Shown: positions 9,326-28,119 of the stretch, piece after piece
How positions within the stretch are numbered: the first letter of the stretch is position 1
Layout: the number at the start of each line of letters is the position of its first letter
DNA from: a virus
Strand: one strand, 5' to 3'
Virus record (IMG/VR): IMGVR_UViG_2667527224_000001
Length of the DNA: 64,000 nt
Notes under the pieces: model-generated
The model's database searches: none
Told to the model about the DNA's origin: nothing
Seen by the model: only the letters and a program-made list of their open reading frames with translations
Position numbers and translations under genes: made by a program

Positions 9326-9382
9326 TGCCAGAAACTAAAGCAAAGCCCACAAACTCAAATCACGCCAGCCGGCGAGGGTCCC

Positions 9383-9577
9383 ATGTCGCCATATAGAACC
9401 TCAGGGACGACCGTCGTGATCTTCTCCGGCGGGCGGACCAGCGCCTACATGCTGCACCAGGTACTGGATAACGACGATGACCTCTGCGATCTGGTTGTCA
9501 CCGTCGCCAAAACCGGCAAAGAACACCCGCCGTGCTCGAGTTCGTCCGAGAATATGCCAATCTCGACCGGGCCATAG
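9383..9577 (+). pseudogene. N-terminal remnant of PAPS-reductase-family protein
   Basis: FSGGRTSAYML PP-loop, TGKEH; truncated. Confidence 0.75.
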
Positions 9578-9599
9578 CCGGTTTCTTTAGCAATTAGCG

Positions 9600-10313: not shown

Positions 10314-10641
10314 TTGCCGGACTCAAACCTTCCGAATGACAACAAGAGTAGATCAGCGCTCCGCACTGACAGTACCTCCCTGCGCGACTCGCGTCAGCTT
10401 GGCCATGCCGTGCCTACCCTGGAGCGCGCCCGTCGCCGAAAAGCTGATCACCCCCAAACGAATACAGTTAGGGCTTAGGCAGGGGGATTGCTGATGGTTC
10501 TCCTGCCGGGAGCTGCGAGTTACGCGACTGGCGAGGCGAACCAATAGACCTTAGTTCGCCTGCTCAGCCTCCCTTTCACCCTTCATCCGATTTCACAATC
10601 CATCTACAAGTCTGCCGGTGAACGGTGGGCGAGGAATTCCT

Positions 10642-11489: not shown

Positions 11490-11689
11490 AGCGAGAACTG
11501 ATAAAGATCAGCGAGTTTCAGCGCCGGCGCTGGGGCGAAAACGGTACACCGCAATGCCCACAGGCCATCCGCAACCACATCCGCAATGGCGATGTGCCTG
11601 GGGAGCAGATCGGAAGACTCTGGCACGTTGACTGGGCAGCATTCAGCCGCTCGCAGGGCAACGACCTCGTCGCTATGGTATTGAAATGA
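11486..11689 (+). CDS. xis: Excisionase-like protein
   Basis: Small winged-helix-like ORF (GEQIGRLWHVD) directly upstream of integrase. Confidence 0.75.
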   Translation: MKRELIKISEFQRRRWGENGTPQCPQAIRNHIRNGDVPGEQIGRLWHVDWAAFSRSQGNDLVAMVLK

Positions 11690-11697
11690 GCTGCATG

Positions 11698-12812
11698 ATG
11701 GTGCCACGGCCGCACAGCCCTGCGAACAAGGGACTCTTGCGCAGAATCTGTACTATGACGCGGGCCGCTCGACCTATCGCTACCGGCGGCCTACCGACGG
11801 GAAGTGGTTCCAGTTTGGCACCGACCGCATCAAGGCGATCGACGCAGCAAAGCAATTGAATCTTGAGTTTATGCACGGCGCCGATCTGGTCGGCGCAGTG
11901 TTGAATAACACCTCAGAAACATTTGCCGGTTTCCTCGACACCTACGAGCGCGATGTCCTGCCACCTCGAGAGCTGGCCAAGGGAGCCCTGGGCCTGTACG
12001 CGGTGCACTTTAGGCGGTTTCGCAAGCAGTTTGAGGGCAAGGCTGTAGACCAGATCACGACTCGAATGATCGCGGAGATGCTGGACGCCCTCACCCCGCG
12101 CACGGCGAACCAGTGCCGAGCCCTGCTGATCGACATTTTCAACCACGCCGCAGCAAAGGGGCTGTGCCCGGACAACCCCGCCGCCAGCACCATAAACCGC
12201 ATCGAGAAGAAGCAGCGCAAACGTCACACCGTAGAAGACCTAAAGGCCATCAGGGAGAAGGCGCCAGTCTGGGTTCAGAACGCAATTGACCTGGCCCTGA
12301 TCACTGCCCAGCGCCGCACCGACATCCTCGATATGCGATTCGACGGAGTGCGTGATGGGTTTCTCTATCTGGTGCAGAAGAAAACCGCAAAGGCCAGTGA
12401 CGCGGCGTGGATTCGCTTCCGGGTGACGCCCGAGCTGCAGGCAGTCATCAGCCGCTGCCGTGACGACACCGCATCACCTTACCTGGTGCACCGGAAGCCT
12501 GATCGCCTGAAACAGAAACAGGCGCAGACCAAGGACCACTGGACGAAGGTTGAGGAACGGTATTTGACGCGAGCATTCAAGGAAGCCAGGGAGGTGGCAA
12601 ACTGCTACGCAGGATGGAAGGAAGAAGAGATGCCTGGCTTCCACGAAGTGCGAGCGCTGTCACTGCACCTGTACAAGAAAGCCGGAAAGGACGGTCAGAA
12701 AATCGCAGGTCATGCGAGCGAGGGTATGACCAAAAACTACCAGCGCGACCACGAAGAAATCATCTGGTCAGAGGTGATTCCGGACCTGAATATCAGCGAA
12801 ATCACCGGATAG
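11698..12812 (+). pseudogene. int: Lambda-family tyrosine integrase, frameshifted near codon 13
   Basis: MVPRPHSPANKGL out of frame with QNLY...; catalytic R (TAQRRTD), HEVR, H (GHASE), Y (KNY) intact downstream. Confidence 0.85.
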
Positions 12813-12874: not shown

Positions 12875-12901
12875 TAAGTGCCTGATTTTACTCAGGAAAT
12901 A

Positions 12902-12949
12902 TGGTCGGGACGGAGTGATTCGAACACTCGACCCCTAGCACCCCATGCT
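12902..12949 (-). tRNA. 3' fragment only of tRNA-Pro(GGG), att core (not a functional tRNA)
   Basis: Minus strand AGCATGGGGTGCTAGGGGTCGAGTGTTCGAATCACTCCGTCCCGACCA: anticodon arm, T-arm, CCA; 5' half absent. Confidence 0.85.
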
Positions 12950-13498: not shown

Positions 13499-14257
13499 TT
13501 AACCGTACACCGCTTCCACTCGGCGAGCTTTTGCGGCAAAGGCAACCAAGACCACCAAGACTGCGGCAAGTACCAACGAGGAACCTACGGTACCAAAGTC
13601 CAGGCCTCCTTTTTCATGCGGTTTGGTCAGGAAATCGCCGAGGGTTGCACCGAACGGACGGGTGAGGACAAATGCCATCCAGAACAGCAGTACACCGGAG
13701 ATACGGGTGTAAAACCTGGCCAGCACCACGGCGATGATCGCCGAACCGATCAGCAGTGCGCCACCGGCAAAGCCAAGACCGGAGTCGTCAGCCAAATAGT
13801 CACCTAGCGCAGTGCCCAGGGTGTTGGAGATCAAAATAGCTGTCCAGTAGAACAATTCACCCTTAGTGGTGTGGATGCTATTCACCGATAAGCTTTTTTC
13901 GCTCAGGCGCCAAACCGCAAAAATCGTGATCAGCAGGCTGATCAAAATCAGCGATCCAGAGGCATAGCCAAGGCCTAGGGTGCGGTCCATAAAGTCCGAC
14001 ATTGTCGTGCCCGCGGTACTGGTGGAGAGAATCACGATCCAGTACAGCACCGGGTTATGACTCTTGGAAAACAGCTGCATGCCAAGCGTCACCAGAAAGG
14101 CGCTGATCAGGATCAGCGAACTCATGGCGTAGCCCACGTTCAGGGTCATTGAAAGCAGATCACCGGCGGTCTCGCCGAGAGTAGTGGCACAGATTTTCAT
14201 AACCCAGAAAGCCAGGGTTATTTCCGGCAGCTTGTTCAGGTTGATATTGGTGCTCAT
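13499..14257 (-). CDS. COG4705/DUF347-repeat membrane protein
   Basis: KLPEITLAFWVMKICATTLGETAGD; duplicated GTxxxDF / TLGTALGD; many TMs. Confidence 0.8.
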   Translation of the reverse strand: MSTNINLNKLPEITLAFWVMKICATTLGETAGDLLSMTLNVGYAMSSLILISAFLVTLGMQLFSKSHNPVLYWIVILSTSTAGTTMSDFMDRTLGLGYASGSLILISLLITIFAVWRLSEKSLSVNSIHTTKGELFYWTAILISNTLGTALGDYLADDSGLGFAGGALLIGSAIIAVVLARFYTRISGVLLFWMAFVLTRPFGATLGDFLTKPHEKGGLDFGTVGSSLVLAAVLVVLVAFAAKARRVEAVYG

Positions 14258-14484
14258 GAAGAAGACGCATTCCTGATCGGGAAAGGGTAAGTGGGTATCG
14301 CGCTGAGGAATCAGTTATGAATTACGCATGGGAACAATCAGCGAGCTGTGCCGCGACGTTAAGCGACGCTCAACTTTCGCGAAAGAAAAGATACAGCGCA
14401 ATACTTAGCTGAGACTGAGGGGGTGCTGATGTGTTTGCCAAGGGTGCTGACCGGCAGCAAAGGGTCGATTATAGCCCTTCAACC

Positions 14485-14601
14485 TCAGCGCGAAACTTCC
14501 CTGACGTACGCTTGGCACGCCGCCAGCGCAGTCAATCCCCGGTCACCCTCGTCGGTGATTCCGATAATTCTTTGAGCATGCGCTGGGTCAAGTCGGGCGC
14601 G
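14485..14601 (-). pseudogene. C-terminal remnant of Rz-type i-spanin
   Basis: RADLDPAHAQRIIGITDEGDRGLTALAACQAYVREVSR*. Confidence 0.75.
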
Positions 14602-14642
14602 TTATCTTGGTCGCGCCCCCCCAAGGAGTGCTTAACCACCAC

Positions 14643-15221
14643 TCACTTTTTGAAAAAAAGCTTCTTGGCCGCGAAGACTGCAACCGCGCCAGCGATTCCT
14701 ACAGGTCCACCAACTACTGCAGCTGCGCCAATTAATGCAGATTTCGCCGTAACTTTTAAGGCTGCTTCTACTGGCTTCTCTGACTCAGAGGCAGCATCGA
14801 ATCCATTTTTTAATGCTGATGCGGAGGCAATTGCAGTAACCACAGCAGCACCACCTGGGACGATATGAGCAAGTGTATTTCCCGCCATGGAGAATACGGA
14901 CCGGACCTGCTCGCTGGTGGTGGTGCCATAGATGCACCAGTCCACAAAATGCTCACAGTTGTTCGTGACCAGATTGTAGGAGTCTTCACCCAGTCGCGTA
15001 TACCCTCGAGCAATGCGCGCTTCAGCGTCATGCACCGCCAATGGATGCGACTCCACAACGGTGGGCATGCCACCGCTGAATTTTTCGAGGCTTACTCTGC
15101 AGATAGGTCCAGACACACTATCCCCAAAACCAGAATAATGGAGCACCTCACCGGCACCAATATAGATGCCATGGTGGGTATATCCGCACCTTACGCTCAC
15201 CAAATGGTCGCCCCTGCGCAT
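14643..15221 (-). CDS. LRAT/NC-domain (permuted NlpC/P60) protein with hydrophobic C-tail
   Basis: YTHHGIY, VLHY, YNLVTNNCEHF motifs. Confidence 0.85.
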   Translation of the reverse strand: MRRGDHLVSVRCGYTHHGIYIGAGEVLHYSGFGDSVSGPICRVSLEKFSGGMPTVVESHPLAVHDAEARIARGYTRLGEDSYNLVTNNCEHFVDWCIYGTTTSEQVRSVFSMAGNTLAHIVPGGAAVVTAIASASALKNGFDAASESEKPVEAALKVTAKSALIGAAAVVGGPVGIAGAVAVFAAKKLFFKK

Positions 15222-15326: not shown

Positions 15327-15602
15327 CTATCGGCTATCGGACGCCTTCATAAACTTGCTCACAGATAACTCCCCTGGCTCGGGCTTGGTCAGCAACTTCA
15401 GCCAGATCTCCCGCTCTCTGGTCAGCGCGCTTGAGCACGTCGGCAAGCACCATTGCGGCGCGGGCAGCTGCCTGGCTTGCGGCGGCAGTGCAGGAATGGC
15501 CGCTGGCATCACTGGTTGCGAGCCGAGCGGCAAGGTTGTCGGCTGCCCCGCGCAGGCCGTCAGCAGAAGCGCGAGCGGCAGCAGCATCAGCAATCGCCTC
15601 AT
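15327..15602 (-). CDS. Embedded Rz1-like o-spanin lipoprotein
   Basis: MRRLLMLLPLALLLTAC lipobox, Pro-rich, nested in spanin gene in another frame. Confidence 0.75.
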   Translation of the reverse strand: MRRLLMLLPLALLLTACAGQPTTLPLGSQPVMPAAIPALPPQARQLPAPQWCLPTCSSALTREREIWLKLLTKPEPGELSVSKFMKASDSR

Positions 15603-15843
15603 CGATACGTTGTTGTCCATTTTGGATTGCCTTGTTGATTGACTGTTGACGGGCTTGTTCCTTGGCGCGCTCGGCGGTTTCATTCGCCAGCTTCGCGGCG
15701 ATGTCCAGGGCGTCGCGCGCTTCCCACTTCCCTTTCCACTCAGCATCCTTCACTGATAGCCCGTGATGGTAGGCGCCGAACAGCGCGCCGACGGCGAGAG
15801 CAATCAGCAGCAGGATCGCGCCGGCTTTGGCATAGGTCGTCAT
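15334..15843 (-). CDS. DUF2514 Rz-like i-spanin
   Basis: N-terminal TM, Ala-rich coiled coil, RARGVICEQVY; follows endolysin. Confidence 0.8.
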   Translation of the reverse strand: MTTYAKAGAILLLIALAVGALFGAYHHGLSVKDAEWKGKWEARDALDIAAKLANETAERAKEQARQQSINKAIQNGQQRIDEAIADAAAARASADGLRGAADNLAARLATSDASGHSCTAAASQAAARAAMVLADVLKRADQRAGDLAEVADQARARGVICEQVYEGVR

Positions 15844-16373
15844 GGCAGCACCGCCGTCGCCTTGCTCCAAAGCTTCAGCCGATCAGCCTGGCCATTGAGC
15901 CCGCCATTGATCCGCCGGGTGATTTTTTCGAAGTCGCCCGCATCAGCCAGGGCGTTCAGCCCATTGGTTGCCCAGAACCATGCGGCCGACAAGCACGCGT
16001 TCTTCGGCTGCTCCAACAGCTCTGGCTGATTGATCAGGTCGAGGGCCAGGGCTTCGCCGCACGCCGCATAGTTTGCCCGACCGGTAATCTGGATCAGGCC
16101 CCGGCCGCGATACTTGAAGCCGTCGCCCGGGACGGTGTTGCCCAAGTCCTTGCGACCTTCGTACTTGGCCTGGGCAGGGGTTGGCCCCCAGATTTCACGA
16201 ACGTAGACCAAATGACCGGACTCATGTCCGATCTGGGCAATGAAAGCAGCCACTCGTTTGGAGCCGATAATCTGGAACCGACCCATGGCCGTGTTGAGGA
16301 CAGGAACAAAAACGCCGGCTTTGGCGCCGGCGTTCGGGAGGATCTGCAGCAGCTGCTGCGCGGTGATGGGCAT
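15840..16373 (-). CDS. GH19 endolysin
   Basis: AQIGHESG, YRGRGLIQITG, RRINGG. Confidence 0.92.
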   Translation of the reverse strand: MPITAQQLLQILPNAGAKAGVFVPVLNTAMGRFQIIGSKRVAAFIAQIGHESGHLVYVREIWGPTPAQAKYEGRKDLGNTVPGDGFKYRGRGLIQITGRANYAACGEALALDLINQPELLEQPKNACLSAAWFWATNGLNALADAGDFEKITRRINGGLNGQADRLKLWSKATAVLP

Positions 16374-16781
16374 TTACTGATCTCCAGACGAAGAAAACCC
16401 CGAACGGGTCGGGGTCTTGGTGTAGTGCTTGGCGCCGCCTATTCGGACGCCGGCCCAGAACAGCCAGGATCGCCATCGAGCTACGCCTTCCGCGCGCAAT
16501 GCCCGGTAAAGGACCGCGTCCGCCTCCTTGCGAGTGACCTGCCCGCCAAAATAAAGCCAGTCGTGCACAGTCGCCGCGTAGTTCCCGTAACCAGCCACCA
16601 GGGCGAACAGTACAAACAGAAAGACGTTGTGCAGCACCTGAACGCTGGCGAAGTCGGTGACGAAGCCGGCCGGCACGATGATCGTGCGTTGCTCCTCATC
16701 GGCCAGCACTAGGTCGTCGAGCAGTTTGTAGGTGCGGCGGTCGGTCTGGTCGGTTTTCAGGGTGGTGACAAATCGGCTCAT
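16374..16781 (-). CDS. DUF1353 protein
   Basis: VPAGFVTDFAS, VHDWLY, EAD motifs. Confidence 0.85.
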   Translation of the reverse strand: MSRFVTTLKTDQTDRRTYKLLDDLVLADEEQRTIIVPAGFVTDFASVQVLHNVFLFVLFALVAGYGNYAATVHDWLYFGGQVTRKEADAVLYRALRAEGVARWRSWLFWAGVRIGGAKHYTKTPTRSGFSSSGDQ

Positions 16782-17350
16782 GCGGGCAACTCCAGTTCCG
16801 GCAACTCCAGCAGGAAGTCCTCAACAGTCGGCTGCGTTCGCTCTCCCGCTTTTACGGCGGCCAATTGTTCATAGGCATAGGCCCAGACCAAAGATCGCCA
16901 AGCGCGAAAGGCCTTGCCGTCATTTTGGAATTTGGGCACCGCTGGCTCTTCGGCATAGCTCACAGCCGTGGCAATACTGTCGTAGCGGGCCGCAATAGCG
17001 GCTTCGTTGAGCCTGGCCTGTATCGCTTGCTCGAAAGCCGCCGTGATCTCAGCCTGAATCAACGCCTCCCGCGCCGCCTTCTCTGCCGCCGTCATAGCTA
17101 CCTGTTTGCGGGTCACCAGTACGACCTGGCGCTCGGCATCCAGGGTAAGCACCTCGGCACCCCACTTCTTGTTCGCCCCCAGTTCGCCGTCGCCGTTTTC
17201 TTCCGGCCACCATGCGAGGTTTTGCACTCCCAGCGATGGATCGGTCCACGACAGATCGGCGAGCGCTGCAATTGACTCGGGCGTGCCGGACTGGTCAAGG
17301 AACTCGGGCACAGGCTCTCGGACGGCGTTACCGTTTTCAATTTTGATCAT
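16778..17350 (-). CDS. Tail fibre assembly-like protein (DUF4376-like)
   Basis: YDSIATAVSY...FRAWRSLVW; position after fibre gene. Confidence 0.65.
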   Translation of the reverse strand: MIKIENGNAVREPVPEFLDQSGTPESIAALADLSWTDPSLGVQNLAWWPEENGDGELGANKKWGAEVLTLDAERQVVLVTRKQVAMTAAEKAAREALIQAEITAAFEQAIQARLNEAAIAARYDSIATAVSYAEEPAVPKFQNDGKAFRAWRSLVWAYAYEQLAAVKAGERTQPTVEDFLLELPELELPA

Positions 17351-18498
17351 TATGAAACCCTCACGAATGCTGTTTTATCGGGGTCGAGTGCTTGCACGCT
17401 CGGAAGGTTGAAGCTTGTGGCAGGGAGAAGACTGATTCGCGCAACCAGATTTAAGGATGATGTAGAAAGAACAACCATGTAGCCACCTCCTACCGCGTAG
17501 GATTGGTTGTAAGAATTAGCTGGTGAAGTAATGGCAGTACCAAATTTCTCGGGAAGGTCAAAATTAACTACTGACTGTCCTGTTACGGGAAATAAGAAAA
17601 ACCTGCCGAAGGCAAAAGCAGCTAGTAGGTTTAACCCGGTGGCGGTGCCTGAGAACCAAGAGAGCCCGTCCCAAGAGTATGTTGCTGCCGCGCCTGTAGT
17701 GTTAGACGTCGCAACAAAGAAACCGTTACCGTAGGCCAGCCCTGTTACCCGCCGCGCGGTTGGTAATGCACTAGAAGTCCAAACTACACCGTCTGCTGTA
17801 CTAGATACATATGCCGAATTATTCGAAAGGTCGCCAACGACAAAACGACCGGAGCCGTATGCCATCCGTGATTGGCCAGTACCAATCCCAGCAGTATTGT
17901 TACTGGCCACCCAAGCAATGCCATCTAGTGAATAACCTGCACCATTCGCAATATTACCCCCGAATGCTACAAACCTTCCTCCCCCGTAGGCGATAGACGA
18001 CCACGCTGCCGCGGACGGCATGACTCTTTGCGTCCATACCGCACCGTCGTTAGTCGATGCGCTGAAAGCTACGCCGGTAGCGATAGCGACGAAAACCCCA
18101 CCTCCGTATGCGATACCTGTATAGGTTGCCGCCGGCAATGCACCACCAGCCTGCCATGTAGCCCCAAAGTCTGAAGAGACAGCGGATAACCCGGTGGAAC
18201 TTATGGCAATGAACAGTCCATTTCCGTAAGCGACACTTACCCATGTAGCAGTCGCAGGAAGGGAAACCGTGGTAAACGAGTTGGTTGTAACCGCCTGCGT
18301 ATAAGCATCGCCAATCGCGCGATACAAGGCCGAGTAGTTATCCTTCAGCAAACTCCGCCCATCGGCGGGCAACTCATTCGCCGCAGCAATGCCAGCGTGA
18401 GCCATTACAGTTCCTACCGCAGATATAGAGCTAATCGCGCTGCGAGGAATCCCCAAAGGATTGCCAAGCGGATTCCCCAAAGGGTTACCGTAAGCCAT
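17350..18498 (-). CDS. Receptor-binding/fibre-like protein: collar motif plus beta-propeller-type repeats
   Basis: VGTVMAHAG...DGRSL...LYRAIG collar; repeated W..(I/V)AYG.G.FVA units; N-terminal (GNPL)x3. Confidence 0.7.
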   Translation of the reverse strand: MAYGNPLGNPLGNPLGIPRSAISSISAVGTVMAHAGIAAANELPADGRSLLKDNYSALYRAIGDAYTQAVTTNSFTTVSLPATATWVSVAYGNGLFIAISSTGLSAVSSDFGATWQAGGALPAATYTGIAYGGGVFVAIATGVAFSASTNDGAVWTQRVMPSAAAWSSIAYGGGRFVAFGGNIANGAGYSLDGIAWVASNNTAGIGTGQSRMAYGSGRFVVGDLSNNSAYVSSTADGVVWTSSALPTARRVTGLAYGNGFFVATSNTTGAAATYSWDGLSWFSGTATGLNLLAAFAFGRFFLFPVTGQSVVNFDLPEKFGTAITSPANSYNQSYAVGGGYMVVLSTSSLNLVARISLLPATSFNLPSVQALDPDKTAFVRVS

Positions 18499-18878
18499 TA
18501 GTAATCCTTCCAAGTTGCGGAGAAAGTTACGCCAGCCGCCTGTGCAACGAGCAGTGAAACGTCGAGCGTTTCGTTTGCGCCAAGCTCAATAGGAGTCGAT
18601 GGAGTGATATCAAACGCTACTTGTGGCAGCTTTGCGGTGAGCGCAGACGTATAAGCGGGTAGAGTTTCAGAGCGCAAAACTTTACCCGCTTTATTCACGT
18701 TGATGCCGCTTGCCGTAACAGTACCCTTCGGTGTTGCTCGGATGCTTGTAACAACGCAACCGTTTGCACCAGCAGTCACAAGAATCGTCCCGGCAGTCCC
18801 CACGGCGGTAGCTGCAGTGAGATCAACAGCGTTTGTCTTCGGAGTTTGAGCAAAGGGAGCAGTGAATGTGTTTGGCAT
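18498..18878 (-). CDS. Tail-tip hypothetical
   Basis: ORF in tail operon, beta-rich. Confidence 0.65.
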   Translation of the reverse strand: MPNTFTAPFAQTPKTNAVDLTAATAVGTAGTILVTAGANGCVVTSIRATPKGTVTASGINVNKAGKVLRSETLPAYTSALTAKLPQVAFDITPSTPIELGANETLDVSLLVAQAAGVTFSATWKDY

Positions 18879-18887
18879 GATGGTTCC

Positions 18888-19319
18888 TTAGAATGACAGA
18901 GCGACGGAGTGCATAAGGGCGAGGTTGCCAATCGAGCCTTGCGCGGACTCAGCGGCTGTGGCGGATGCGGCGGCGTTACTGGCCTGCACGGCTGCTTTAT
19001 TGGCTTGGGCAGCAGCCAAGGCCACCTGCTCCGCGCCATTGTTGGTAGCGTCGATGGCCGATTGCGCCGCGGCATTTTTCGAGGAGTTCGCGGCAGCAGC
19101 TGAGTCGGCCGCTGCGCCGGCAGAAGTGGCGGCGGCATTTTTGTAGCTCTCAGCCGCATTCACCTGGGTGGCGACCCAGGAAAGCGAAATATTAAGCTGA
19201 GGGACCATCAACTGCTGAGCGGTAAGCGATGCGCCGGACTTGATGTCAAATACCGATTCCGGGTCAGTTGGCAGTGGCGGATCTGGAAGAAGATCGATTA
19301 CAGGCGCTGTGACTGCCAT
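18888..19319 (-). CDS. Tail-tip protein with Ala-rich linker
   Basis: ORF in tail operon. Confidence 0.65.
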   Translation of the reverse strand: MAVTAPVIDLLPDPPLPTDPESVFDIKSGASLTAQQLMVPQLNISLSWVATQVNAAESYKNAAATSAGAAADSAAAANSSKNAAAQSAIDATNNGAEQVALAAAQANKAAVQASNAAASATAAESAQGSIGNLALMHSVALSF

Positions 19320-20233
19320 TAGTTAAGGCTCCGTGTTTCAAGGGAGTAGTTGGCGCGTCCATAGGTTGGAAGCCCCATAGCCAGGCGCTCGAAGCGCCCG
19401 GCGATAATTGTGTAATCCAGATTCTCGCTGCCGACGTACAGCGCGACGGTATCGCTGAGCGGAACGAGAGTTCGCCTGACGCTTGAGACCTCTTCCGATG
19501 AGAGGACGATGTCGAAGCTGATCATTTGTCTCTTGCCGCGCGGAATGATGGTGACGTTGCCGAAGTCGTCTTCCTTGACGCTTGAGAAGCTTTCGTCGGC
19601 AATGCTGCTCCCGTGCACGGCAGTGCCAATCGTCTTGGCCATGCCGATAACCATCATGCCGATCCTGGCCGTACTTCCTGGCGCCAGGGCAATGACCCGG
19701 ATATCAGCGCCACTGAATGGCGGAAGGTCGAAGCGTGCGACGTTGTCCTTCGTCTTGAACTCGCCGAAGTAGTACTGATACCAGCTTCCCCCTGCCTTCG
19801 TAGACATGGCGAAGGTTTGGTCGTAAACCACCGATCCGCCAACAATCATCTGGATCTGCACAGAGGCGGCGCGAACCCCAACCAGCCCAATGGAGTTGAT
19901 CCGCTTGCCGGGGCGAACGGTCAGATCGATGCTTTCGGGGTTTGATGTGAACGTGCCGATGGTCCATGTGTTGCCGGCCCGCTTGTTGAACATCTTCCAG
20001 CGGTTGGTTGGCCCGAGGTCGAGCCATGCCGGAGGGGATACGGTATCCGTCTCCGGGTTTCTCCCGGTGTTTGCGACCAAGGCCTCGTAGTTGCGATGGT
20101 TTAGCATCACCTTGTCGCTGACCTTGTATGCCGTGGCGACCAGCCACAGCGCGTTATCCGTCTCCGGCACGTTGTTGCTGATCATGGCGACAGGCGCTAT
20201 CTCGACCGGTGGAACGACCTTCATAACGCTCAT
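19319..20233 (-). CDS. Distal-tail-like protein with carbohydrate-binding-like N motif
   Basis: W..ATAYKVSDKV...NYEAL...PPAWLDLG resembles CBM5/12; follows tape measure. Confidence 0.55.
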   Translation of the reverse strand: MSVMKVVPPVEIAPVAMISNNVPETDNALWLVATAYKVSDKVMLNHRNYEALVANTGRNPETDTVSPPAWLDLGPTNRWKMFNKRAGNTWTIGTFTSNPESIDLTVRPGKRINSIGLVGVRAASVQIQMIVGGSVVYDQTFAMSTKAGGSWYQYYFGEFKTKDNVARFDLPPFSGADIRVIALAPGSTARIGMMVIGMAKTIGTAVHGSSIADESFSSVKEDDFGNVTIIPRGKRQMISFDIVLSSEEVSSVRRTLVPLSDTVALYVGSENLDYTIIAGRFERLAMGLPTYGRANYSLETRSLN

Positions 20234-23200
20234 GCGGCCTCCGTTTTAACTGTGTTGACGACCTGCACGCCCGACTCATTAATCTGCGTCGTGTTGTAGG
20301 CCGTCTTTTCCATGTGCTTGGTGAGGAACGCCAAGTCGTTATGAATATCCGCGCGCAACTGGCGCAGCTCGGCGATGGTTGCGGCTGAATCACCGGAACC
20401 ACTGGGCGTTGCTGCCGTCTGGGTGACGCTGTAGACCCGGGTCGGTGTTGCTGACTTCGCACCTGGCCCAGCAATTCCGCCACCCGCGAATGCAGGCAGC
20501 TTGCGGCCGTTCATTTGATCCAGAAGGTCGGTTCCGTAGGTGCGCACTGCGTCAGCAGTCAGCACGTATTCGCCATTGGAAAGGCGAGCAATGATGCTGT
20601 CGCTGGTGCCAGTACCCGGTCCCGAGATCAGGCCGCCAGTTGCGTAGCCGGCCTTGACCTTCTCTTTATTTTCCTTGGCTGCATTGGCGATTGCCTGGGC
20701 CAGCTGGTCAAGAGTGATATCCCCCTTGGAAACCTGGCCCAGCCAATAATCCCTGCCAGCTTTATCAGCGTCGCGCCCGAGTAGCTCCGTGTAGATGGTG
20801 TCGATATAGGCGCCGTTGGTGGTGGCGGAGTTCGTTGTACCCTTCCCGCCCATGCCGGCCAGTGCCGCTATAACTGCCATGTTCATAGCGCTGATTGCAT
20901 CTGCCACGCTCTTGACCGAGTTATCAATGCCGTTGAGCGCATCCATCTGCGCCTGGGCGAAGGCAAGCTGATCGTCGAACTTGGCCATTTGCAGCTTGTA
21001 GTCGTCCTCGGCCAGGTCTAGCTGATCCTGCAAGTACTCGACCGTCTGCTCGGCGGTGGTCAGTTGCTTGCCGTTCAGCTTGTTGAGTTCGGCGACCTCG
21101 TTGACAGTCCGACCCTGGTCCCGCTGGAAGTCTTCCATCGAGCGATACAGGTCGGTGTTGTTGCTTCCGAGGGTGTCGAGCGCATCGCTCAGCCCAGCAA
21201 ATTCCGCGAGAGACCCGCCTGCCCGCGCCTTGCTCAAAGCACTTTGCAGCGTGGCCTGAGCCTGGTTGCGCAGCGCCTTAACCGTCTCGTCTGAGTCGCC
21301 GCGCAGTTGCTTCAGCGCAGAGCCCAGGCTATTGCTGACACCGGTCAGGTCGCTGACGTTCTTGCTTGCCGTGCTGGCCATGTCGTTGAGTGAGGTGACC
21401 CGGGCGTTATAGGCCGCGGTCACGTTCTTCTGCTCAGCTGCGATAGCTCGCTGTAGGGCTCCGTTTGATCCAGTAACCGCCCCCATCAGAGCGTCAGCGA
21501 TTGCTTGAGCAGCCTGGGTAGCACGCTGCTCAAGGATCGTGTAAGCCTGCGAGGCATTGCCGGCCAGACCTGTCATCGTGACAAACATCTGCTGACCGGC
21601 AGTTGTCGTCATGTCCAGCGCTTCAATGACGGCCCGGTACGCATCGCGCGTATCAGGAAGCGCCAGGCCGAGCGCAGCAAACTGCTTGCCTACTGCGGCG
21701 AGCGTGTCGTCCGCCTTCTCGGTGTCGCTGAAGAAGTTTTCGTAGTAGGTGCCTGCGTTCTTGGTCAACGACTCAAGGCCGCCGGCCATCGCCGAAAGCC
21801 GCTCAGCCAGCAGGCCGCCGCTCACACTGAAGTCGTACAGATCGACGTTCAGGTTTTCCAGTACATCGTTGACGCTGTAAAGGTTGTTAACGAAGGTGGT
21901 CAGCCCTTCGAAAGTTCGGCCGCCAAGTCCTGCGCCAACCGCTGAATCGACAGCGGTAACCATCGAGTCAGCAACGCCGCCAAACCACTTAGCGATCTCT
22001 TCCTGGATCTGCTCGGCCGTCTTGTCCTTGGTGCTGATCTGAGTGGAGGCGACATTCAGGCCATCTAGCACTCCGTCATTCAGCTTGACGTTGAGACGAT
22101 CAAACAGCGTTAGGACAGAGTTCTCGGTGGCGTCGTAGGTGTTATCGAGCGCCGCCTGCATTTCAGGATCGAGCACAGAAAGCCGAGTGCGTTTCTTGTT
22201 CTTGCCGAAGAGGCCGCCCTTTTTCTTCTGGTACTCATACTGGCTGGCATTGAGGTCGCCACCCTCTACGCCTACCTGGATGCCTTGGTCCTTAGTTGTC
22301 CATTCGCCGGCAAACAACTTTGAGCCGAATGCCGCACCCAATGCCGCACCAATGACCGTACCGATACCAGGCAGAACAGAGCCCATCGCTGCACCCATTG
22401 CCGTACCGCTCAAGGCGCTTGCTGCAGCTGTGCCGGCGATCGTGCCAGCCGTTGCGCCACCCCATCCGCCAAGCCCTCCAGCAACTGCGCCCTTCACGCC
22501 AGAGTTCTGATAGCCCTGAATCGCGCCACCAATACCGCCGGCAGCAGCTCCAAAGCTAGCGGCCGCACCTCCCCATGTTGATCCTGTTTGAGCTGCCGAC
22601 CAGTTCGCCATTTGCGAACCGGTATATCCGGCCTGCGTCGCTCCTTGCGCAGCGCTACTTGCAGCCCCTCCACTGCTGCCGAACAGACTGCTCAGCCCGC
22701 TATTGACGTAGCTGGACCCATTGCTCAGCGCGCCCTTCATGCCGCCAAGGAATCCCTCGCCAGCATTCCAGCCTGCAGCGACAGTGCTGCCAAATCCAGA
22801 TGTAGCAGTGCTGTAGATCCCGCGCCCAGCGCTAAGCATGGACTCGAAATCCATCGATCCGCCGGATCCACTAGACCCCGCAGAGCTTGCGCCTGCTGTC
22901 GAGCTTGAAGATACGCCAAACATTCCAAGAACGGACGGCATCACCTTCGACTTGATCGCAATCCGTGCGAAGTCAGCGATGATCGAATCAGCAAAGTCCT
23001 TAATGGACGCTTTCCCAGTCGTGGCGAAGCTGACCAACACATCTTCCAGGCTTTTGAATGCACTGGTGAATGCCGACTTCGTCTGCCCTGCTACGTCCTT
23101 GACCTGCTCCAGATAGGTCGCGTAGGCCGATGAGGCACCGTTGAGCCAGTTGGTTTGCTCGGCCTCTACAGCGCCGTAGTACTCCTTCTGCATTGCCAGG

Positions 23201-25905
23201 CGCTGAGCCAGGGCCTCGCGTACTGCGGCCGTCTCCTGCTGGTAAACGCTGTCATCGATCTGGTTTTTGTTCTTCTGAGCCAGCAGCTTGTCGAGCTTGT
23301 CCTGATACTCCTGCTGGATCTTGATGTCTTCTTGCAGGCGTTTGCGCGCCTCGTCACCCATGCCGACACCGGCCACCGACAAGGCCAATTGCTTCTTGGT
23401 AGTCGCAAGCTGGTCATCCAGCGCGTCAATGTAGGTTTGGACGGCAGCGGCCTGCTTCTTGAGCCGGCCCTCTTCATTTGTCGACAGGACGTTGAGCTGG
23501 GTGTCAGCGTCCTGCTGAGCCTTGACCATGTTGGTACGCGCGTCGGCGATCTTCTGGTCAAGCGCGATACGCTGCTCGGCCGAAGTGCTTTTTTTGCCCT
23601 TGGCCGCTTCGAGCGCGTCAATTTCAGCCTGATAGGCTGCAGTGATCTTTCCTTTTTCCTGTTCGACCAGGGCCGCGCTCTGCTCGCTGTAGTCCTTTTG
23701 CGAGAGCAGGCCGCTTTTCTGCGCAGCGTTCAGTTTCTGCTGGGCGTTGTCGTACTCGCTGGTAATCAGTTTCAGCTTGTTCTGGGCGTCGTTGAATCCG
23801 GACAGATCGACAGATCCTGCAGTCGTCTTGGCATCCTTGTACTTGGCGTTAATAGCCTCCCTTTGCTGGTCAATGCTGGCTTGTGTAAGCCTTGCATTAT
23901 TGGGATCTGACTTGCGTAGATCAGCAATCTCCTTATTTAGGCTGTCGATCTCATCCTTACGCTTGTCGCTGTTTGATCTTGTCGCCTTCTTTCTGGCATC
24001 AAGGGCATCAATTGCCTTTTGTCCAGCCAGCTCAACTGCGGCGCGCTCTTTCTGTTTTGTTGCGTAATCAGCCTCGGCAGCATCCTTCACTTCAAGGCCG
24101 CGAATGTAATCCCTGAGGCTTTGCTTGCCCTTTTCACCAATATAAACAAGATCCTCGCCGGGAATCATTTCACTGCCGCCGCGAGTCTCAAGCCTCGACA
24201 AGGTATCTTTTGCCGTCTGGATTCGCTCAGAGTTAGTCGGTGCGCGACCGACATTCTTTAAGCTATCAGCAGCCCTCGCCACTGCGTTATAGCCCTTCTC
24301 CCAAAGGCTAAGGTTTTCCAAGATCTTCGGCGTGCGGTCATTAATCGCGTCGGCATATTGCTCAGTGGCAAGCTTGACTGCGCCGGCATGATTGCCCTGC
24401 TCTTCCAGAGCTACGATTTGTGAGTAAACCGATGCAGTAAGATAGTTGTACTGCTCATTGAGTGCTGCCGAGGCTTTGACTGGGTCGCCGGCAAGCTTGT
24501 TGAACTCGGCAACTGTTTCGCTTACTGCTTTGCCGGTTGCCTCCTGCATGGAAACTGCCGCCTTAGCAACATCTAGGTAGCTGTCGCTTGCGATCTTTCC
24601 GCCGGAAGCAAGGCTAGCCAAAACTTCAGCCGCCGCCCCGGTCGAGCCAACTGTTGCGCTAACTTGGCGAGCCATGTCACCAAGCTGGCCGGCGGTCATG
24701 CCGGCAGAATTACCAGTTAGGATCAGCGACTTGCTGTACGCATCAGCCTCTTGGCTGCCTTTGTAGTAGGCGACTCCAAGACCCACAGCGGCTGCTGCCG
24801 CCAGAGTGAATGGATTAATCAGGCCAGCGACATAGCCACCCATGGCCTTCGCCGCTGGGCCGATGCCGCCGAACATATCCTTGAGCTGACCGCCCTGCTG
24901 GATGAGGACAGTCATCGGCGCTTGGCCGCCTTGCAGGCTGGTGAAAATATCCGTGAACTGCGCAGGGAGCTGACGCAGCGCCGCAGTTGTCTGCGCGGAA
25001 GAAACACCGGTTTTCTGAAGGCTGTCGTCGAAAGTGCCGAGTCGTTGTCGGGCCTGATCCAGCTTCGCGGTGTACTTGGCGAACTCTCCGTCAGGCAAAA
25101 TTCCAGCGGCGTTAAATTTGGAGAGCTGGTCCTGGGCTGTGTCGAGCTTTTTCAGTGCCGCAACTGTCGGATCGATCTTGCCGAGCAGCTCTGCGAGATC
25201 CCTCGCTTGCGCTTCCGTAGCAGCAGACGCCTTTTGCGAGGATGCAGTGCTTCGATCTGTAGCAACGGCGAGAGCATCAGACTCCGCCTTGAAGCGCTTC
25301 TGCATCGCAGCGTAATCAGTGCCTGAAGATTTCGCCGCTTCAAGTGCAGACGTATTGCTGCTAATGCTGGCCGTGACTCGCTGGTAATACTCGCTAGCGT
25401 CCAGGGATGATTTGGCCATGGCGGTAAGACGGGCCAGTGCAGCATCAGCCGACTCGGACAGTTTGCCTTCGGCAGATGACAGGCCATTAGCGGCAGCTGC
25501 AGCCTTATCAAACCCAGCGGCAATACCAGCTGCAGCCTTCCCAGTCTTTTCGCTGGACTGAGCAATCTTGTCCTGTGCAGCGCTCACCGCCTCGCTCTGT
25601 GCCCGGTAGCTGCCCATTGAGGCGGCAGCGGACTGAAACGAACTGGACGCCGCCGAAATAGAGCGCCCGATATCTGCCATCAATTTGGCGGTAGCGTCTT
25701 GCTTGGCGTTGAGTGTCTGTAGCTCTTTGGCAATCTGCTGAGTATTGGTTGCCATACCGCCGATTGCCTGCTCCCAGGCCCTGCCGGTGCGCTTGACGCT
25801 GTCCTCGCTCCGCTTGCCGGCCTCCGTCATCTTGTCGAGGTCGTCAGCGGCCTGCGCGGCATCGGAGGAATCGACGCGAATCCCTAGCTCGGCAATCGAG
25901 GTCAT
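20230..25905 (-). CDS. Tape measure protein (1891 aa) with C-terminal DUF4214-like motif
   Basis: Length, TMP core (LPAQFTDI..SL.GGQ.P..V.IQQGGQ), lambda-like C domain, Gly-rich TM zone. Confidence 0.92.
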   Translation of the reverse strand: MTSIAELGIRVDSSDAAQAADDLDKMTEAGKRSEDSVKRTGRAWEQAIGGMATNTQQIAKELQTLNAKQDATAKLMADIGRSISAASSSFQSAAASMGSYRAQSEAVSAAQDKIAQSSEKTGKAAAGIAAGFDKAAAAANGLSSAEGKLSESADAALARLTAMAKSSLDASEYYQRVTASISSNTSALEAAKSSGTDYAAMQKRFKAESDALAVATDRSTASSQKASAATEAQARDLAELLGKIDPTVAALKKLDTAQDQLSKFNAAGILPDGEFAKYTAKLDQARQRLGTFDDSLQKTGVSSAQTTAALRQLPAQFTDIFTSLQGGQAPMTVLIQQGGQLKDMFGGIGPAAKAMGGYVAGLINPFTLAAAAAVGLGVAYYKGSQEADAYSKSLILTGNSAGMTAGQLGDMARQVSATVGSTGAAAEVLASLASGGKIASDSYLDVAKAAVSMQEATGKAVSETVAEFNKLAGDPVKASAALNEQYNYLTASVYSQIVALEEQGNHAGAVKLATEQYADAINDRTPKILENLSLWEKGYNAVARAADSLKNVGRAPTNSERIQTAKDTLSRLETRGGSEMIPGEDLVYIGEKGKQSLRDYIRGLEVKDAAEADYATKQKERAAVELAGQKAIDALDARKKATRSNSDKRKDEIDSLNKEIADLRKSDPNNARLTQASIDQQREAINAKYKDAKTTAGSVDLSGFNDAQNKLKLITSEYDNAQQKLNAAQKSGLLSQKDYSEQSAALVEQEKGKITAAYQAEIDALEAAKGKKSTSAEQRIALDQKIADARTNMVKAQQDADTQLNVLSTNEEGRLKKQAAAVQTYIDALDDQLATTKKQLALSVAGVGMGDEARKRLQEDIKIQQEYQDKLDKLLAQKNKNQIDDSVYQQETAAVREALAQRLAMQKEYYGAVEAEQTNWLNGASSAYATYLEQVKDVAGQTKSAFTSAFKSLEDVLVSFATTGKASIKDFADSIIADFARIAIKSKVMPSVLGMFGVSSSSTAGASSAGSSGSGGSMDFESMLSAGRGIYSTATSGFGSTVAAGWNAGEGFLGGMKGALSNGSSYVNSGLSSLFGSSGGAASSAAQGATQAGYTGSQMANWSAAQTGSTWGGAAASFGAAAGGIGGAIQGYQNSGVKGAVAGGLGGWGGATAGTIAGTAAASALSGTAMGAAMGSVLPGIGTVIGAALGAAFGSKLFAGEWTTKDQGIQVGVEGGDLNASQYEYQKKKGGLFGKNKKRTRLSVLDPEMQAALDNTYDATENSVLTLFDRLNVKLNDGVLDGLNVASTQISTKDKTAEQIQEEIAKWFGGVADSMVTAVDSAVGAGLGGRTFEGLTTFVNNLYSVNDVLENLNVDLYDFSVSGGLLAERLSAMAGGLESLTKNAGTYYENFFSDTEKADDTLAAVGKQFAALGLALPDTRDAYRAVIEALDMTTTAGQQMFVTMTGLAGNASQAYTILEQRATQAAQAIADALMGAVTGSNGALQRAIAAEQKNVTAAYNARVTSLNDMASTASKNVSDLTGVSNSLGSALKQLRGDSDETVKALRNQAQATLQSALSKARAGGSLAEFAGLSDALDTLGSNNTDLYRSMEDFQRDQGRTVNEVAELNKLNGKQLTTAEQTVEYLQDQLDLAEDDYKLQMAKFDDQLAFAQAQMDALNGIDNSVKSVADAISAMNMAVIAALAGMGGKGTTNSATTNGAYIDTIYTELLGRDADKAGRDYWLGQVSKGDITLDQLAQAIANAAKENKEKVKAGYATGGLISGPGTGTSDSIIARLSNGEYVLTADAVRTYGTDLLDQMNGRKLPAFAGGGIAGPGAKSATPTRVYSVTQTAATPSGSGDSAATIAELRQLRADIHNDLAFLTKHMEKTAYNTTQINESGVQVVNTVKTEAA

Positions 25906-27373: not shown

Positions 27374-28021
27374 TTAAGAGGCGTAACGGGTTGGACGGGA
27401 CAGCAGGGAGAAGGACGAGTTAACGGTGTCGACCTGGCCCTTGTTCTTGGTCGGCGTCTCGTTCAACGACACATAGCCGTAGTAGTAAATCTTCGAGCCG
27501 TTCTTGTTCACCATCATCAGAGGGCGAATGGCGCGGGCATCAGCAGCCTTTTTCAGGGCCTGATAACCGACCAAAGATGGGTCATCGCCGATCTCCATGG
27601 ACAGGCTCTGCGCCGAGTACATGGTCGGGATCTGGATCTCGAAGTCTGCTTCCAGCGGCGACACGGTGGCGTACTGCTGATCGCCGCCCGAGGTGCTGAT
27701 GCCGATCACCTGGGTGATCTGGGTAAAGGTCAGCACTTTGGTTGCGCTGCCAGCCGAGGTGCCAGCAGGGAATGCGGTGGTATCGCTGGTGTCCAGGCCT
27801 TCAAGCTCGAAGGTGCTGGCCAGTGGGTTGGCTACGCGAAATACGCGCTCGTTGATGCGCTGCCAGCCGCTCTTTACGGTGATGATGTCGCCAGCCGACA
27901 GGCTGTGACCGGCTGCGGTTGCAACGGCGGTTGTGGCGTTGCTGATCGCGGTGATCGATACCGGGGTGCCGAAGGTGGTGCCCAGGTGAATGGTGGTGCC
28001 GTCAGGGATCGAGAAAGCTAT
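27374..28021 (-). CDS. Major tail tube protein; apparent start codon ATA
   Basis: AFSIPDGTTIHLGT...; AAAGGA RBS 6 nt before ATA at 28021. Confidence 0.8.
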   Translation of the reverse strand: MAFSIPDGTTIHLGTTFGTPVSITAISNATTAVATAAGHSLSAGDIITVKSGWQRINERVFRVANPLASTFELEGLDTSDTTAFPAGTSAGSATKVLTFTQITQVIGISTSGGDQQYATVSPLEADFEIQIPTMYSAQSLSMEIGDDPSLVGYQALKKAADARAIRPLMMVNKNGSKIYYYGYVSLNETPTKNKGQVDTVNSSFSLLSRPTRYAS

Positions 28022-28119
28022 GGTAGTTCCTTTGCGGCCGCATGGACCGACGCTGAGTTTCGCCCGAACGGGCAATAAAAAACCCGCTCAAGGCGGGTTG
28101 TGGTGTTGCGGCAACTGGG

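Follow-up and report, generated by a model that had tools for sequence, protein, structure and literature searches.

The locus analysed here raises the question of why the tape measure protein (TMP) of a Pseudomonas prophage shares a domain, DUF4214, with two cargo proteins encoded close to it. The original prediction, made from the window (the whole stretch of 64,000 nucleotides that was analysed), saw in the three proteins one envelope- or LPS-binding module: the phage would use it to engage the envelope during entry, and the prophage proteins would compete for this ligand or mask it. The motif on which this reading was built is real. HMM search places PF13946 above its gathering cut-off (23.2 bits) in all three proteins, with 38.9 bits in the TMP, 57.3 in a protein of 891 aa and 79.8 in a protein of 311 aa. 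Furthermore, two HMMs that we built were run on the ORFs of the 64-kb window in all six frames and matched only these three; the DUF4214 match is therefore not due to chance. The features discussed below are listed in Table 1.

Table 1. Features of remnant B and prophage C in the window (positions are those of the window)
Feature	Position	Strand	Size	Content and evidence
891-aa DUF4214 gene (moron 2)	630-3305	+	891 aa	two N-terminal DUF4214 repeats, long beta-strand repeat region; Pfam 57.3 bits
GH19 endolysin of remnant B	3376-4101	-	241 aa	
311-aa DUF4214 gene (moron 1)	4129-5064	-	311 aa	two DUF4214 repeats, helices, C-terminal beta-sandwich; Pfam 79.8 bits
Perfect palindrome	5078-5098		21 bp	core TGTCA-N3-TGACA; 25-45 nt upstream of the 311-aa gene
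Terminator-like hairpin	5291-5320	-		12 pairs and T run; right after the chaperone fragment
DUF1353 chaperone gene, 3' fragment	5330-5486	-		92% identical to 16380-16536
Early-gene remains of remnant B	5484-11569			YqaJ fragment, methylase fragment; blastn map, Pfam
Integrase of remnant B	11856-12812	+		PF00589, PF22022
att repeat, border of remnant B and prophage C	12897-12949		53 bp	blastn and ARAGORN on the genome
Own cargo of prophage C	13499-15221	-		DUF347 membrane protein (13499-14257); LRAT/NlpC-P60-like protein (14643-15221)
Lysis genes of prophage C	15334-16373	-		Rz-like spanin (15334-15870); GH19 endolysin (15840-16373); PHROG 181, PHROG 312, PF00182
Tail-tip genes of prophage C	16374-20233	-	304, 143, 126, 387, 190, 135 aa	PHROG 6278, PHROG 1158, PF07087
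TMP of prophage C	20230-25905	-	1,891 aa	PF06791, PF09718, PF13946, PHROG 24
GPGTGTSDSI...NGEYV core motif of the TMP	20494-20649	-	aa 1753-1804	directly after the DUF4214 repeat; alignment
Single DUF4214 repeat of the TMP	20659-20829	-	aa 1693-1749	Pfam PF13946, 38.9 bits

The DUF4214 repeat of the tape measure protein

By its family domains (PF06791 TMP_2, 265 bits; PF09718 Tape_meas_lam_C, 94 bits), its long helical build and its gene order, the ORF at 20230-25905(-) is a genuine tape measure gene. PHROG 24 ('tail length tape measure protein') matches its product at E 1e-205 and PHROG 3547 matches aa 1418-1838. The gene of the tube protein (PF08813) is located at 27374-28075, and tail-tip and chaperone genes lie downstream of the TMP gene. 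An N-terminal part of lambda type (1,100 aa) precedes a middle part that is hydrophobic and rich in Gly, and the C-terminal module is conserved. Positions 20689-20814, which encode on the minus strand the peptide quoted in the original prediction, fall inside the DUF4214 repeat of this module (E 8.8e-10). Residues Y1705, G1710, W1721 and G1728 are invariant across 49 TMP homologues (about 50% identity), and the hallmark residues of DUF4214 (Y...LGR..D..G..YW...G) are kept under selection in the TMP. Some of the aligned homologues carry two repeats. The AF2 model of aa 1600-1891 is poor (pLDDT 56) and was left out of the fold search; within it, the repeat is modelled as three helices with a pLDDT of about 80.

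The GPGTGTSDSI...NGEYV motif that follows the repeat is nearly invariant in the alignment of TMP homologues, and a motif of this type is present twice in gp16 of mycobacteriophage Douge (PDB 8zdo). A tblastn search with aa 1600-1891 found 784 phage records, the matches listed lying mostly over this motif, and the DUF4214 segment alone (aa 1672-1752) had no match in 50,697 phage records. Homologues of the C-terminal module number at least 1,188; PF13946 is present in 106 of 119 among the matches listed. The N-terminal parts to which the module is joined are of two or three different TMP types, and the module is always accompanied by a gene, immediately downstream, that encodes a PHROG 6278-type protein of about 300 aa. 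Judged from these matches, DUF4214 is a constant element of the C-terminal module that more than 1,000 Pseudomonas prophage TMPs share. The domain already carries a database label in these TMPs; a full-text literature search found ten papers that name DUF4214 and gave no mention of it in a TMP.

The special match claimed between the TMP and its two neighbours did not hold. The TMP repeat shares 34% identity with the 891-aa protein and 36% with the 311-aa protein, and at least eight other DUF4214 proteins tested are closer to it; the likeness, as far as these sequences tell, is at the family level only. As for the module itself, the double DUF4214 unit of the 311-aa protein adopts, in the model, the fold of the phycobilisome linker (PF00427; PDB 3ohw, 3pru, 2ky4) with a Foldseek probability of about 1.0 and a VIA Z up to 7.7, and the DUF4214 profile finds the linker repeats of ApcE at E 2e-4. 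Model and profile together indicate that the DUF4214 repeat is a three-helix unit homologous to the phycobilisome-linker domain, whose cyanobacterial phycobiliprotein-ring partner is absent here. The only structural relatives of DUF4214 are protein-protein docking domains, which counts against an envelope-docking reading; binding of envelope or LPS had been an assumption of the original prediction. We also considered the DUF4214 pair as an LPS binder similar to the N-domain of Caulobacter RsaA (PDB 7peo), a large secreted LPS-anchored surface protein that has no sequence relationship with these proteins; the match was weak (Z 4.9) and was discounted. No DUF4214 structure came up when the PDB was searched by sequence with the TMP C-terminus and the 311-aa protein; the Douge TMP motif was the only match. 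To our knowledge, no activity or ligand has been assigned to DUF4214, a domain that is rare in the genus Pseudomonas (28 of 401 genomes).

The two cargo genes and the prophage that carries them

The TMP belongs to the intact prophage C, which begins at ~12,950, ends shortly beyond position 64,000 and has a 53-bp repeat of tRNA-Pro at each border. This repeat, 100% conserved in many relatives, is identical to the 3' part of a tRNA-Pro(GGG) gene located about 1 kb beyond the right end of the window. The integrase gene of prophage C is located just beyond the window (C2:1323625-1324122); the ORF at 62930-63973, also considered for this role, has no Pfam match and was rejected. The last tail-tip gene (135 aa) encodes a DUF1353 'tail assembly chaperone'. 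DUF4214 is absent from both proteins of the element's own cargo. The same genome harbors a second intact prophage with a DUF4214 TMP (prophage 2), whose repeat is 96% identical to that of prophage C and which lacks such cargo.

Both DUF4214 neighbour genes sit in a gutted sibling prophage, remnant B, arranged in tandem with prophage C at tRNA-Pro. Both neighbours are prophage add-ons, but they lie in the decayed sibling and not in the prophage of the TMP. The early-gene sequence still present in remnant B has homology to the early regions of both prophage C and prophage 2, and sequence comparison indicates that the deletion with its junction at ~5484-5486 took all its head and tail genes, its TMP included. 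Nucleotides 3547-4109, in the endolysin of remnant B, are 90% identical to the endolysin of prophage C, and a 245-aa relative was found in a P. baetica prophage. The two DUF4214 genes flank the endolysin gene of remnant B, in moron positions. Since prophage C adjoins the intact tRNA-Pro, it integrated after the cargo-bearing remnant B. Therefore, the cargo failed to exclude prophage C, if it was present and expressed at that time.

Sequence evidence supports the classification of the 311-aa and 891-aa genes as prophage add-on genes (morons). Their GC contents (0.44 and 0.52, respectively) differ from those of their flanks (0.59-0.62), as is also the case in eight other prophages; overall, the morons have a GC of 0.44-0.55 versus 0.58-0.61 in tail modules. 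Neither protein has a PHROG match or the features of a tail fibre or virion accessory protein. The 891-aa gene and several homologues lie on the opposite strand.

In the 891-aa protein, the beta-strand repeat region shows GGxGxD-like motifs, and members of its family are labelled 'S-layer protein' or 'beta strand repeat-containing protein' in the sources. Its sequence has the apparent form of a type I secretion substrate. PF00353 RTX repeats were not called by Pfam in this protein; many members of the family carry them, and the cargo protein of G054 has true RTX repeats. Orthologues with 66% identity are located in non-phage loci, so that we rejected the idea of a phage-specific gene. No type I secretion system (T1SS) was found next to the cargo genes, either in the window or in the 40 kb upstream. 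An AprD/HlyD-type T1SS pair is encoded on the 116-kb contig C1 (105.8-108.9 kb), beside other DUF4214 ORFs.

The 311-aa gene probably starts at 5052, downstream of an AAGGAG ribosome-binding site, and would then encode 307 aa. Both a signal peptide and RTX repeats are absent from its product (sequence, Pfam), and the AF2 model (pLDDT 77) has a structured C-terminus; export of this type is, on these grounds, putative. The C-terminal beta-sandwich gave only generic structural matches (Z 4-5.3), and its look-up in a structure atlas was uninformative (score 0.80). The terminator-like hairpin also heads a homologous cassette in P. fluorescens PS918, and the palindrome, which looks like an operator, is kept upstream of 311-aa homologues in two other species; both travel with the cassette. 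A simple scan found no sigma-70 consensus promoter upstream of the gene. Homologues of the 311-aa protein are encoded between the tail and lysis genes of intact DUF4214-TMP prophages.

Linkage of DUF4214 genes to DUF4214 tape measures

The co-occurrence expected by the original prediction was found. An extra DUF4214 gene lies within 10 kb in six of 16 prophages with a DUF4214 TMP and in none of 75 phages with a DUF4214-free TMP (Fisher p = 1e-5); this statistic overstates independence, because the control phages were not matched by host and the prophages are relatives of one another. None of five DUF4214-TMP contigs found in a scan of IMG/VR has an extra DUF4214 gene within 7-10 kb, which lowers the rate to 6/16. 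Two large DUF4214 frames that are not TMPs (2,640 aa in G092 and 1,837 aa in G341) were left out of the tally. Linkage was observed in G054, G095, P. baetica (two prophages), strain B26140 and P. monteilii, and also in P. fluorescens PS918, a metagenome contig and G161. The linked genes vary in type (307-1,182 aa), position and strand, and the low-GC extra genes are placed just past the tail or lysis genes. Such cargo is absent from ten of the 16 prophages, including both intact ones of this genome.

Possible roles in shielding, exclusion and tail structure

Psh (PP_1794) of P. putida KT2440 is a T1SS-exported, surface-associated RTX-DUF4214 protein that confers broad phage resistance, for which its authors propose, without an adsorption assay, masking of the O-antigen receptor (bioRxiv 10.64898/2026.09.02.748959). 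An exclusion system of this kind can thus be called undescribed only in part, an RTX-DUF4214 shield being now on record (bioRxiv 10.64898/2026.09.02.748959). By architecture, the 891-aa protein appears to resemble Psh, which combines DUF4214 with RTX-like repeats in the form of a T1SS substrate, and so do the prophage cargo proteins of G054 (504 aa) and G161 (1,182 aa). However, Psh is chromosomal, lies beside its AprD-type T1SS inside the O-antigen locus and has no reported connection with a TMP, whereas the genes described here are prophage add-ons without an adjacent T1SS, and the 311-aa type lacks an RTX part. CwpV of C. difficile (PMC4737114) is likewise a large secreted surface protein with an anchoring N-terminal domain that confers phage resistance, without sequence relationship to these proteins.

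Since Psh shields P. putida from phages, the analogy hints at surface shielding as the best reading of the cargo. The add-on genes would be lysogenic-conversion genes whose products reach the cell surface, the 891-aa protein being an S-layer/RTX-like substrate of a T1SS, such as the one encoded on contig C1. The two N-terminal DUF4214 repeats would anchor this protein to a component of the envelope, in line with the proposal for Psh, and once anchored it would lower adsorption or entry of other phages. In the TMP, DUF4214 would most likely dock the C-terminal, first-ejected part on a partner. Phage and cargo would then both make use of one DUF4214-binding feature in Pseudomonas hosts rich in DUF4214, which would account for their recurrent pairing, and direct competition between TMP and cargo would not be required. 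We hold this proposal as a whole, namely surface-displayed lysogenic-conversion morons that dock via DUF4214 and fend off other phages, only tentatively.

It is hardly credible that the pairing is a coincidence in a DUF4214-rich genome. With about 12 DUF4214 ORFs in 6.6 Mb, the chance of finding one such gene within 20 kb of the TMP amounts to a few percent, but this applies to the present locus alone; the pairing recurs in at least seven other genomes or contigs, whereas in these genomes a 10-kb segment has a chance of about 1% of containing a DUF4214 gene, and the census disfavours this explanation. It is also very improbable that the virion contains the small DUF4214 proteins (307-480 aa) as accessory tail fibres or receptor-binding proteins. 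Their conserved, anchor-like N-terminal half, their variable beta-sandwich C-terminal half and the fact that in L026 and L025 their genes share the strand of the tail and lysis genes between which they lie would fit this role. However, their GC is very low (0.44-0.51) compared with tail genes, and their upstream region contains a terminator hairpin and an operator-like palindrome. In P. baetica the gene is encoded on the opposite strand, no PHROG matches these proteins, and here the gene is intact in a prophage stripped of all structural genes. A rather unlikely, more serious alternative confines DUF4214 of the TMP to the virion, as a purely structural or assembly unit, a plug that docks the trimer of the TMP inside the lumen formed by the tail-tip rings, the cargo being surface or adhesion morons of host type without a functional tie to the TMP. 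Until they are expelled during infection, TMP C-termini occupy the lumen of the baseplate (PMC13033339), and homologous phycobilisome linkers dock inside ring-shaped phycobiliprotein discs. Since the C-terminal module always comes with its PHROG 6278-type neighbour, a partnership at the tail tip is suggested; moreover, ten of 16 prophages manage without cargo. The C-terminus of the Douge TMP does bind the lumen of the baseplate hub, but through its last 40 residues and not an internal domain (PMC13033339). Besides, a plug would leave unexplained why, among the thousands of genes of a host, different DUF4214 genes entered this prophage family at least six times.

The mimicry envisaged by the original prediction, in which prophage DUF4214 proteins would occupy or mask an envelope ligand needed by the ejected TMP and phages with a DUF4214 TMP would fail to complete entry, draws on the same linkage data, and the independent arrival of different DUF4214 genes in a single prophage family points to selection. 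That a DUF4214 protein is able to block phages is known from Psh, and the TMP repeat lies near the C-terminus, which exits the tail first. HK97 gp15, a small inner-membrane moron of the YebO family, provides a precedent of tail-directed exclusion by a tail-operon moron, since it excludes superinfecting phages at the step of tail- and TMP-dependent DNA entry (PMC3594210). As here, it is a moron among tail genes; it is expressed from the prophage, and exclusion depends on the tail region of the incoming phage. The proteins described here differ in being large (311 and 891 aa) and in sharing a domain with the TMP itself, and neither has a hydrophobic segment (sequences, model) or a YebO match. 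Several observations speak against mimicry: prophage C, with its DUF4214 TMP, integrated after the cargo-bearing element (if the cargo was then present and expressed), and two intact DUF4214-TMP prophages coexist in the genome, the second without such cargo. Moreover, the TMP repeat is no nearer to the neighbours than to other DUF4214 proteins, the TMP is kept inside the tail until adsorption is over, the masking of an O-antigen receptor proposed for Psh concerns a different step, and the 311-aa type lacks an export signal. We consider this reading unlikely. Equally doubtful is the broader scheme in which a lysogen would display the docking domain of incoming TMPs, saturate its partner in the envelope or tail tip and block channel formation, as a modular, repeatedly acquired defence.

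Functional domains embedded in TMPs have precedents, for instance the Rpf-like and peptidase motifs of mycobacteriophage TMPs and the C-terminal domain of T5 pb2. Such domains near the C-terminus are thought to act on the envelope at entry and are enzymes with known substrates. Similarly, DUF4214 is an extra globular domain near the TMP C-terminus. What is new here is that DUF4214 is a conserved and fixed part of this module in a very large family of Pseudomonas prophage TMPs and that members of this prophage family have on several occasions acquired differing DUF4214 genes of surface type at the tail/lysis end. This locus bears on the ligand of DUF4214, on the spread of Psh-like shields by prophages and on competition between TMP and lysogen for one partner. 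If TMP and cargo do not compete, the cargo genes would be ordinary lysogenic-conversion morons beside a decorated TMP. If they do, this would be a new logic of superinfection exclusion, relevant to the phage-proofing of production strains and to the choice of therapeutic phages.

A DUF4214 repeat within a conserved tape measure module

The peptide pointed out at 20689-20814 in the tape measure protein (TMP) of prophage C is obtained from the minus strand only, inside the TMP gene. Pfam calls DUF4214 (PF13946) at aa 1693-1749 of this 1,891-aa protein (38.9 bits versus a cut-off of 23.2) and also in the two neighboring cargo (moron) proteins, with two N-terminal repeats in the 891-aa protein (57.3 bits) and two repeats in the 311-aa protein (79.8 bits). 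Two HMMs built from DUF4214 alignments matched only these three frames within the window. Therefore, the observation stands and is confirmed at the HMM level. The TMP also harbors TMP_2 (aa 296-497, 265 bits) and Tape_meas_lam_C (aa 919-989, 94 bits) domains and matches PHROG 24 ('tail length tape measure protein', E 1e-205), while PHROG 3547, a second TMP family, spans aa 1418-1838. Judging from identities, the likeness between the TMP repeat and those of its neighbors is at the family level only: 34% with the 891-aa protein and 36% with the 311-aa protein, versus 42-44% with further DUF4214 proteins, from this genome as well as others, and 96% with the TMP of a second prophage of the same genome.

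The repeat belongs to a conserved C-terminal module. A query with TMP aa 1560-1891 retrieved at least 1,188 homologues, nearly all of them Pseudomonas prophage TMPs, and PF13946 is present in 106 of the 119 homologues listed. Since their N-terminal TMP types differ (PF06791/PF09718 or PF20155), the module is shuffled as a unit. The DUF4214 hallmark residues are invariant in an alignment of 49 TMP homologues, some of which carry two repeats. Furthermore, a tblastn query of TMP aa 1600-1891 reached 784 phage records from many hosts (Mycobacterium, Gordonia, Vibrio, Klebsiella and others), the matches listed lying mostly over the GPGTGTSDSI motif. Douge gp16 (PDB 8zdo) has two copies of this motif. 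The DUF4214 segment of the TMP alone gave no match among isolated phages.

According to its AF2 model (pLDDT 77), the 311-aa protein is helical in its N-terminal half and forms a beta-sandwich at the C-terminus. Structural comparison pairs the helical half with phycobilisome linker domains (Foldseek probability ~1.0, VIA Z up to 7.7), and the DUF4214 profile finds the ApcE linker repeats (E 2e-4). These relatives are protein-protein docking domains. No sign of LPS or peptidoglycan binding was seen, and the 'envelope/LPS-binding module' initially proposed is an assumption. The only functional datum on DUF4214 here concerns Psh, an RTX-DUF4214 protein exported by a type I secretion system (T1SS) that provides broad phage resistance in P. 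putida; its binding to O-antigen was proposed on the strength of docking and of its occurrence in an LPS preparation (bioRxiv 10.64898/2026.09.02.748959).

The cargo genes lie in a decayed sibling of prophage C

The window corresponds to C2:1259311-1323310 of a 6.6-Mb genome, taken to be Pseudomonas on the basis of how its best protein matches are named. The 53-bp att repeat and the tRNA-side integrase delimit one prophage of ~52 kb (~12,950 to ~64,980), prophage C. Its minus strand carries, in this order, the terminase, head and tail genes, the TMP, six small tail-tip genes (the last being a DUF1353 'chaperone'), a GH19 endolysin, an Rz spanin and its own cargo. The tail-tip module is unusually small (six proteins, ~1,300 aa in total, no J-like central fibre). 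In related loci (L022-L032), a BNR/sortilin-like beta-propeller protein of 510-780 aa replaces three of the small genes. The TMP may replace tip proteins through its long C-terminal extension.

Beside the second integrase lie early-gene fragments that share 86-97% identity with the early regions of both prophage C and a third prophage (C2:5.16-5.21 Mb); at ~5484 they meet the final 157 nt of a DUF1353 gene. This element, remnant B, is a sibling prophage stripped of every head and tail gene, TMP included, with more remains upstream of the window. Since prophage C adjoins the intact tRNA, it integrated last. Both DUF4214 morons are housed in remnant B. Hence, the 'one locus' of the original prediction holds as a neighborhood, but not as a single prophage. 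The tandem array, which also includes a further integrase fragment and a third att copy, reaches up to ~35 kb upstream of the window (C2:1224661-1259310). A 1,268-aa Big_13 protein, whose C-terminal part carries two DUF4214 repeats, begins directly after this third copy.

Features of the tRNA-Pro array (window coordinates unless prefixed C2)
Feature	Position	Strand	Remark
891-aa moron gene	630-3305	+
311-aa moron gene	4129-5064	-
Perfect 21-bp palindrome	5078-5098		Non-coding stretch of the remnant B insert
Terminator-like hairpin, strong	5320-5291		Remnant B 1.2-kb insert
Second integrase (remnant B)	11856-12812		Left of att repeat
53-bp att repeat	12897-12949		Identical to 3' part of tRNA-Pro(GGG), ~1 kb past the window's right end
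Prophage C own cargo	13499-15221	-	Four-repeat DUF347 membrane protein and LRAT/NlpC-P60-like protein
Tail-tip module	16374-20233	-
TMP gene	20230-25905	-
GPGTGTSDSI...NGEYV motif	20494-20649	-	After DUF4214 repeat; almost invariant in the 49-TMP alignment
Third att copy	C2:1224661-1224708		Degenerate, 92%
Integrase fragment	C2:1256858-1257245
Glycosyltransferase (Glyco_trans_1_2 and DUF3880)	C2:1257676-1258938	-	0.4-1.6 kb left of window, beside 891-aa gene
Integrase adjoining tRNA-Pro(GGG)	C2:1323625-1324122

The DUF1353 and endolysin genes of prophage C adjoin directly (end at 16374 and start at 16373, respectively); in remnant B, they are parted by a 1.2-kb insert with the hairpin, the palindrome and the 311-aa gene. 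The 311-aa gene has a GC content of 0.44 versus 0.59-0.62 in its flanks, and its true start is likely 5052, preceded by an AAGGAG site, which makes the protein 307 aa long, as in database homologues. The hairpin and a TGTCA-N3-TGACA palindrome precede the P. fluorescens PS918 homologues, and the palindrome also precedes that of genome G095, suggesting that the cassette travels with its own control region. Moreover, an operator-like palindrome (5078-5098; L018:14716-14736; L025 ~9950) is kept upstream of 311-aa-type DUF4214 genes in three species, which implies a dedicated regulator.

On the opposite strand, past the remnant B endolysin, the 891-aa gene occupies the place that the spanin and cargo genes take in prophage C. 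Sources name the family of this gene 'S-layer protein' or 'beta strand repeat-containing protein', many members combine RTX repeats and DUF4214, and orthologues (66% identity) occupy ordinary chromosomal loci. This surface-protein gene and the glycosyltransferase gene may form a surface-modification pair in the remnant B cargo slot. Inspection of both moron proteins revealed no signal peptide. No T1SS is encoded near the window; an AprD/HlyD-type T1SS adjoins other DUF4214 ORFs on the 116-kb contig C1. On this small replicon, 105.8-116.5 kb and 12-21 kb (of 116.5 kb) hold an AprD/HlyD/outer-membrane-factor operon, several DUF4214 ORFs and a 1,125-aa ORF, a possible Psh/T1SS-like system that could export the 891-aa protein. 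A ~130-nt element, perhaps a gene fragment, is repeated with 70-86% identity (250-400, just upstream of the 891-aa gene; 14450-14560; C2:457180-457320, 650 nt upstream of the DUF4214 gene C2:457948; C2:879424-879640; C2:1257307-1257424).

Recurrent pairing of TMP and cargo DUF4214

DUF4214 is rare in the genus (any match in 28 of 401 genomes). Prophages were located via their DUF4214-TMP and scored for whether the next 10 kb downstream contain an additional DUF4214 gene. The predicted co-occurrence was borne out: such a gene is found in 6/16 prophages versus 0/75 controls, i.e. viral contigs whose TMP has the GPGTGTSDSI motif without DUF4214 (Fisher p = 1e-5, the prophages being related and the controls not host-matched). 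By chance, ~1% would be expected per 10-kb stretch in the genomes concerned. The pairing is thus recurrent and non-random in this prophage family. The extra genes belong to G054 (504 aa, true RTX), G095 (480 aa), P. baetica contigs C204 (602 aa) and C149 (428 aa, opposite strand, between two tail genes), strain B26140 (606 aa, syntenic with C204) and P. monteilii (598 aa, between tail genes and integrase). Prophage C (with its own cargo) and prophage 2 of the host genome, strain 11/12A, P. lundensis, strain A1437 and five IMG/VR contigs have none. Three further cases, additional to this tally, were located via the cargo: P. fluorescens PS918 (TMP, four genes, 307-aa gene, endolysin), a metagenome contig and G161, where a 380-aa gene and a 1,182-aa RTX-type gene flank the endolysin exactly as in remnant B. 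The cargo genes show at least four unrelated C-terminal types, three different positions, both strands and low GC, which indicates repeated capture.

Possible roles of the paired domains

The DUF4214 call in TMPs is already public, many module-bearing TMPs being named 'DUF4214 domain-containing protein' by NCBI, and a full-text literature search, in which ten papers mentioned the domain, brought up none about its presence in TMPs. What is new is the census, together with the anatomy of the cassette and its setting in tandem prophages. The claim of an undescribed exclusion system must be restricted, since shielding by a DUF4214 protein is already reported in a 2026 preprint (bioRxiv 10.64898/2026.09.02.748959).

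According to the original prediction, prophage DUF4214 proteins compete for or mask the envelope ligand of the TMP. This model agrees with the pairing, and HK97 gp15 offers a precedent (PMC3594210). However, remnant B was already in the cell when prophage C entered, TMP and cargo repeats have no special similarity, no export signal can be seen in the small cargo type, and the O-antigen receptor masking proposed for Psh is a different step; such competition is therefore unlikely. The TMP repeat could instead be purely structural, as its linker-like fold and the constant partnership of the module with a 300-aa tail-tip protein encoded next to the TMP would suggest, but this rather doubtful role does not explain why DUF4214 genes were captured repeatedly. 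We tentatively favor another reading, while holding it for somewhat short of probable: the morons would be lysogenic-conversion surface proteins of the Psh kind, and the pairing would reflect the use, by both phage and cargo, of a DUF4214-binding feature of DUF4214-rich hosts.
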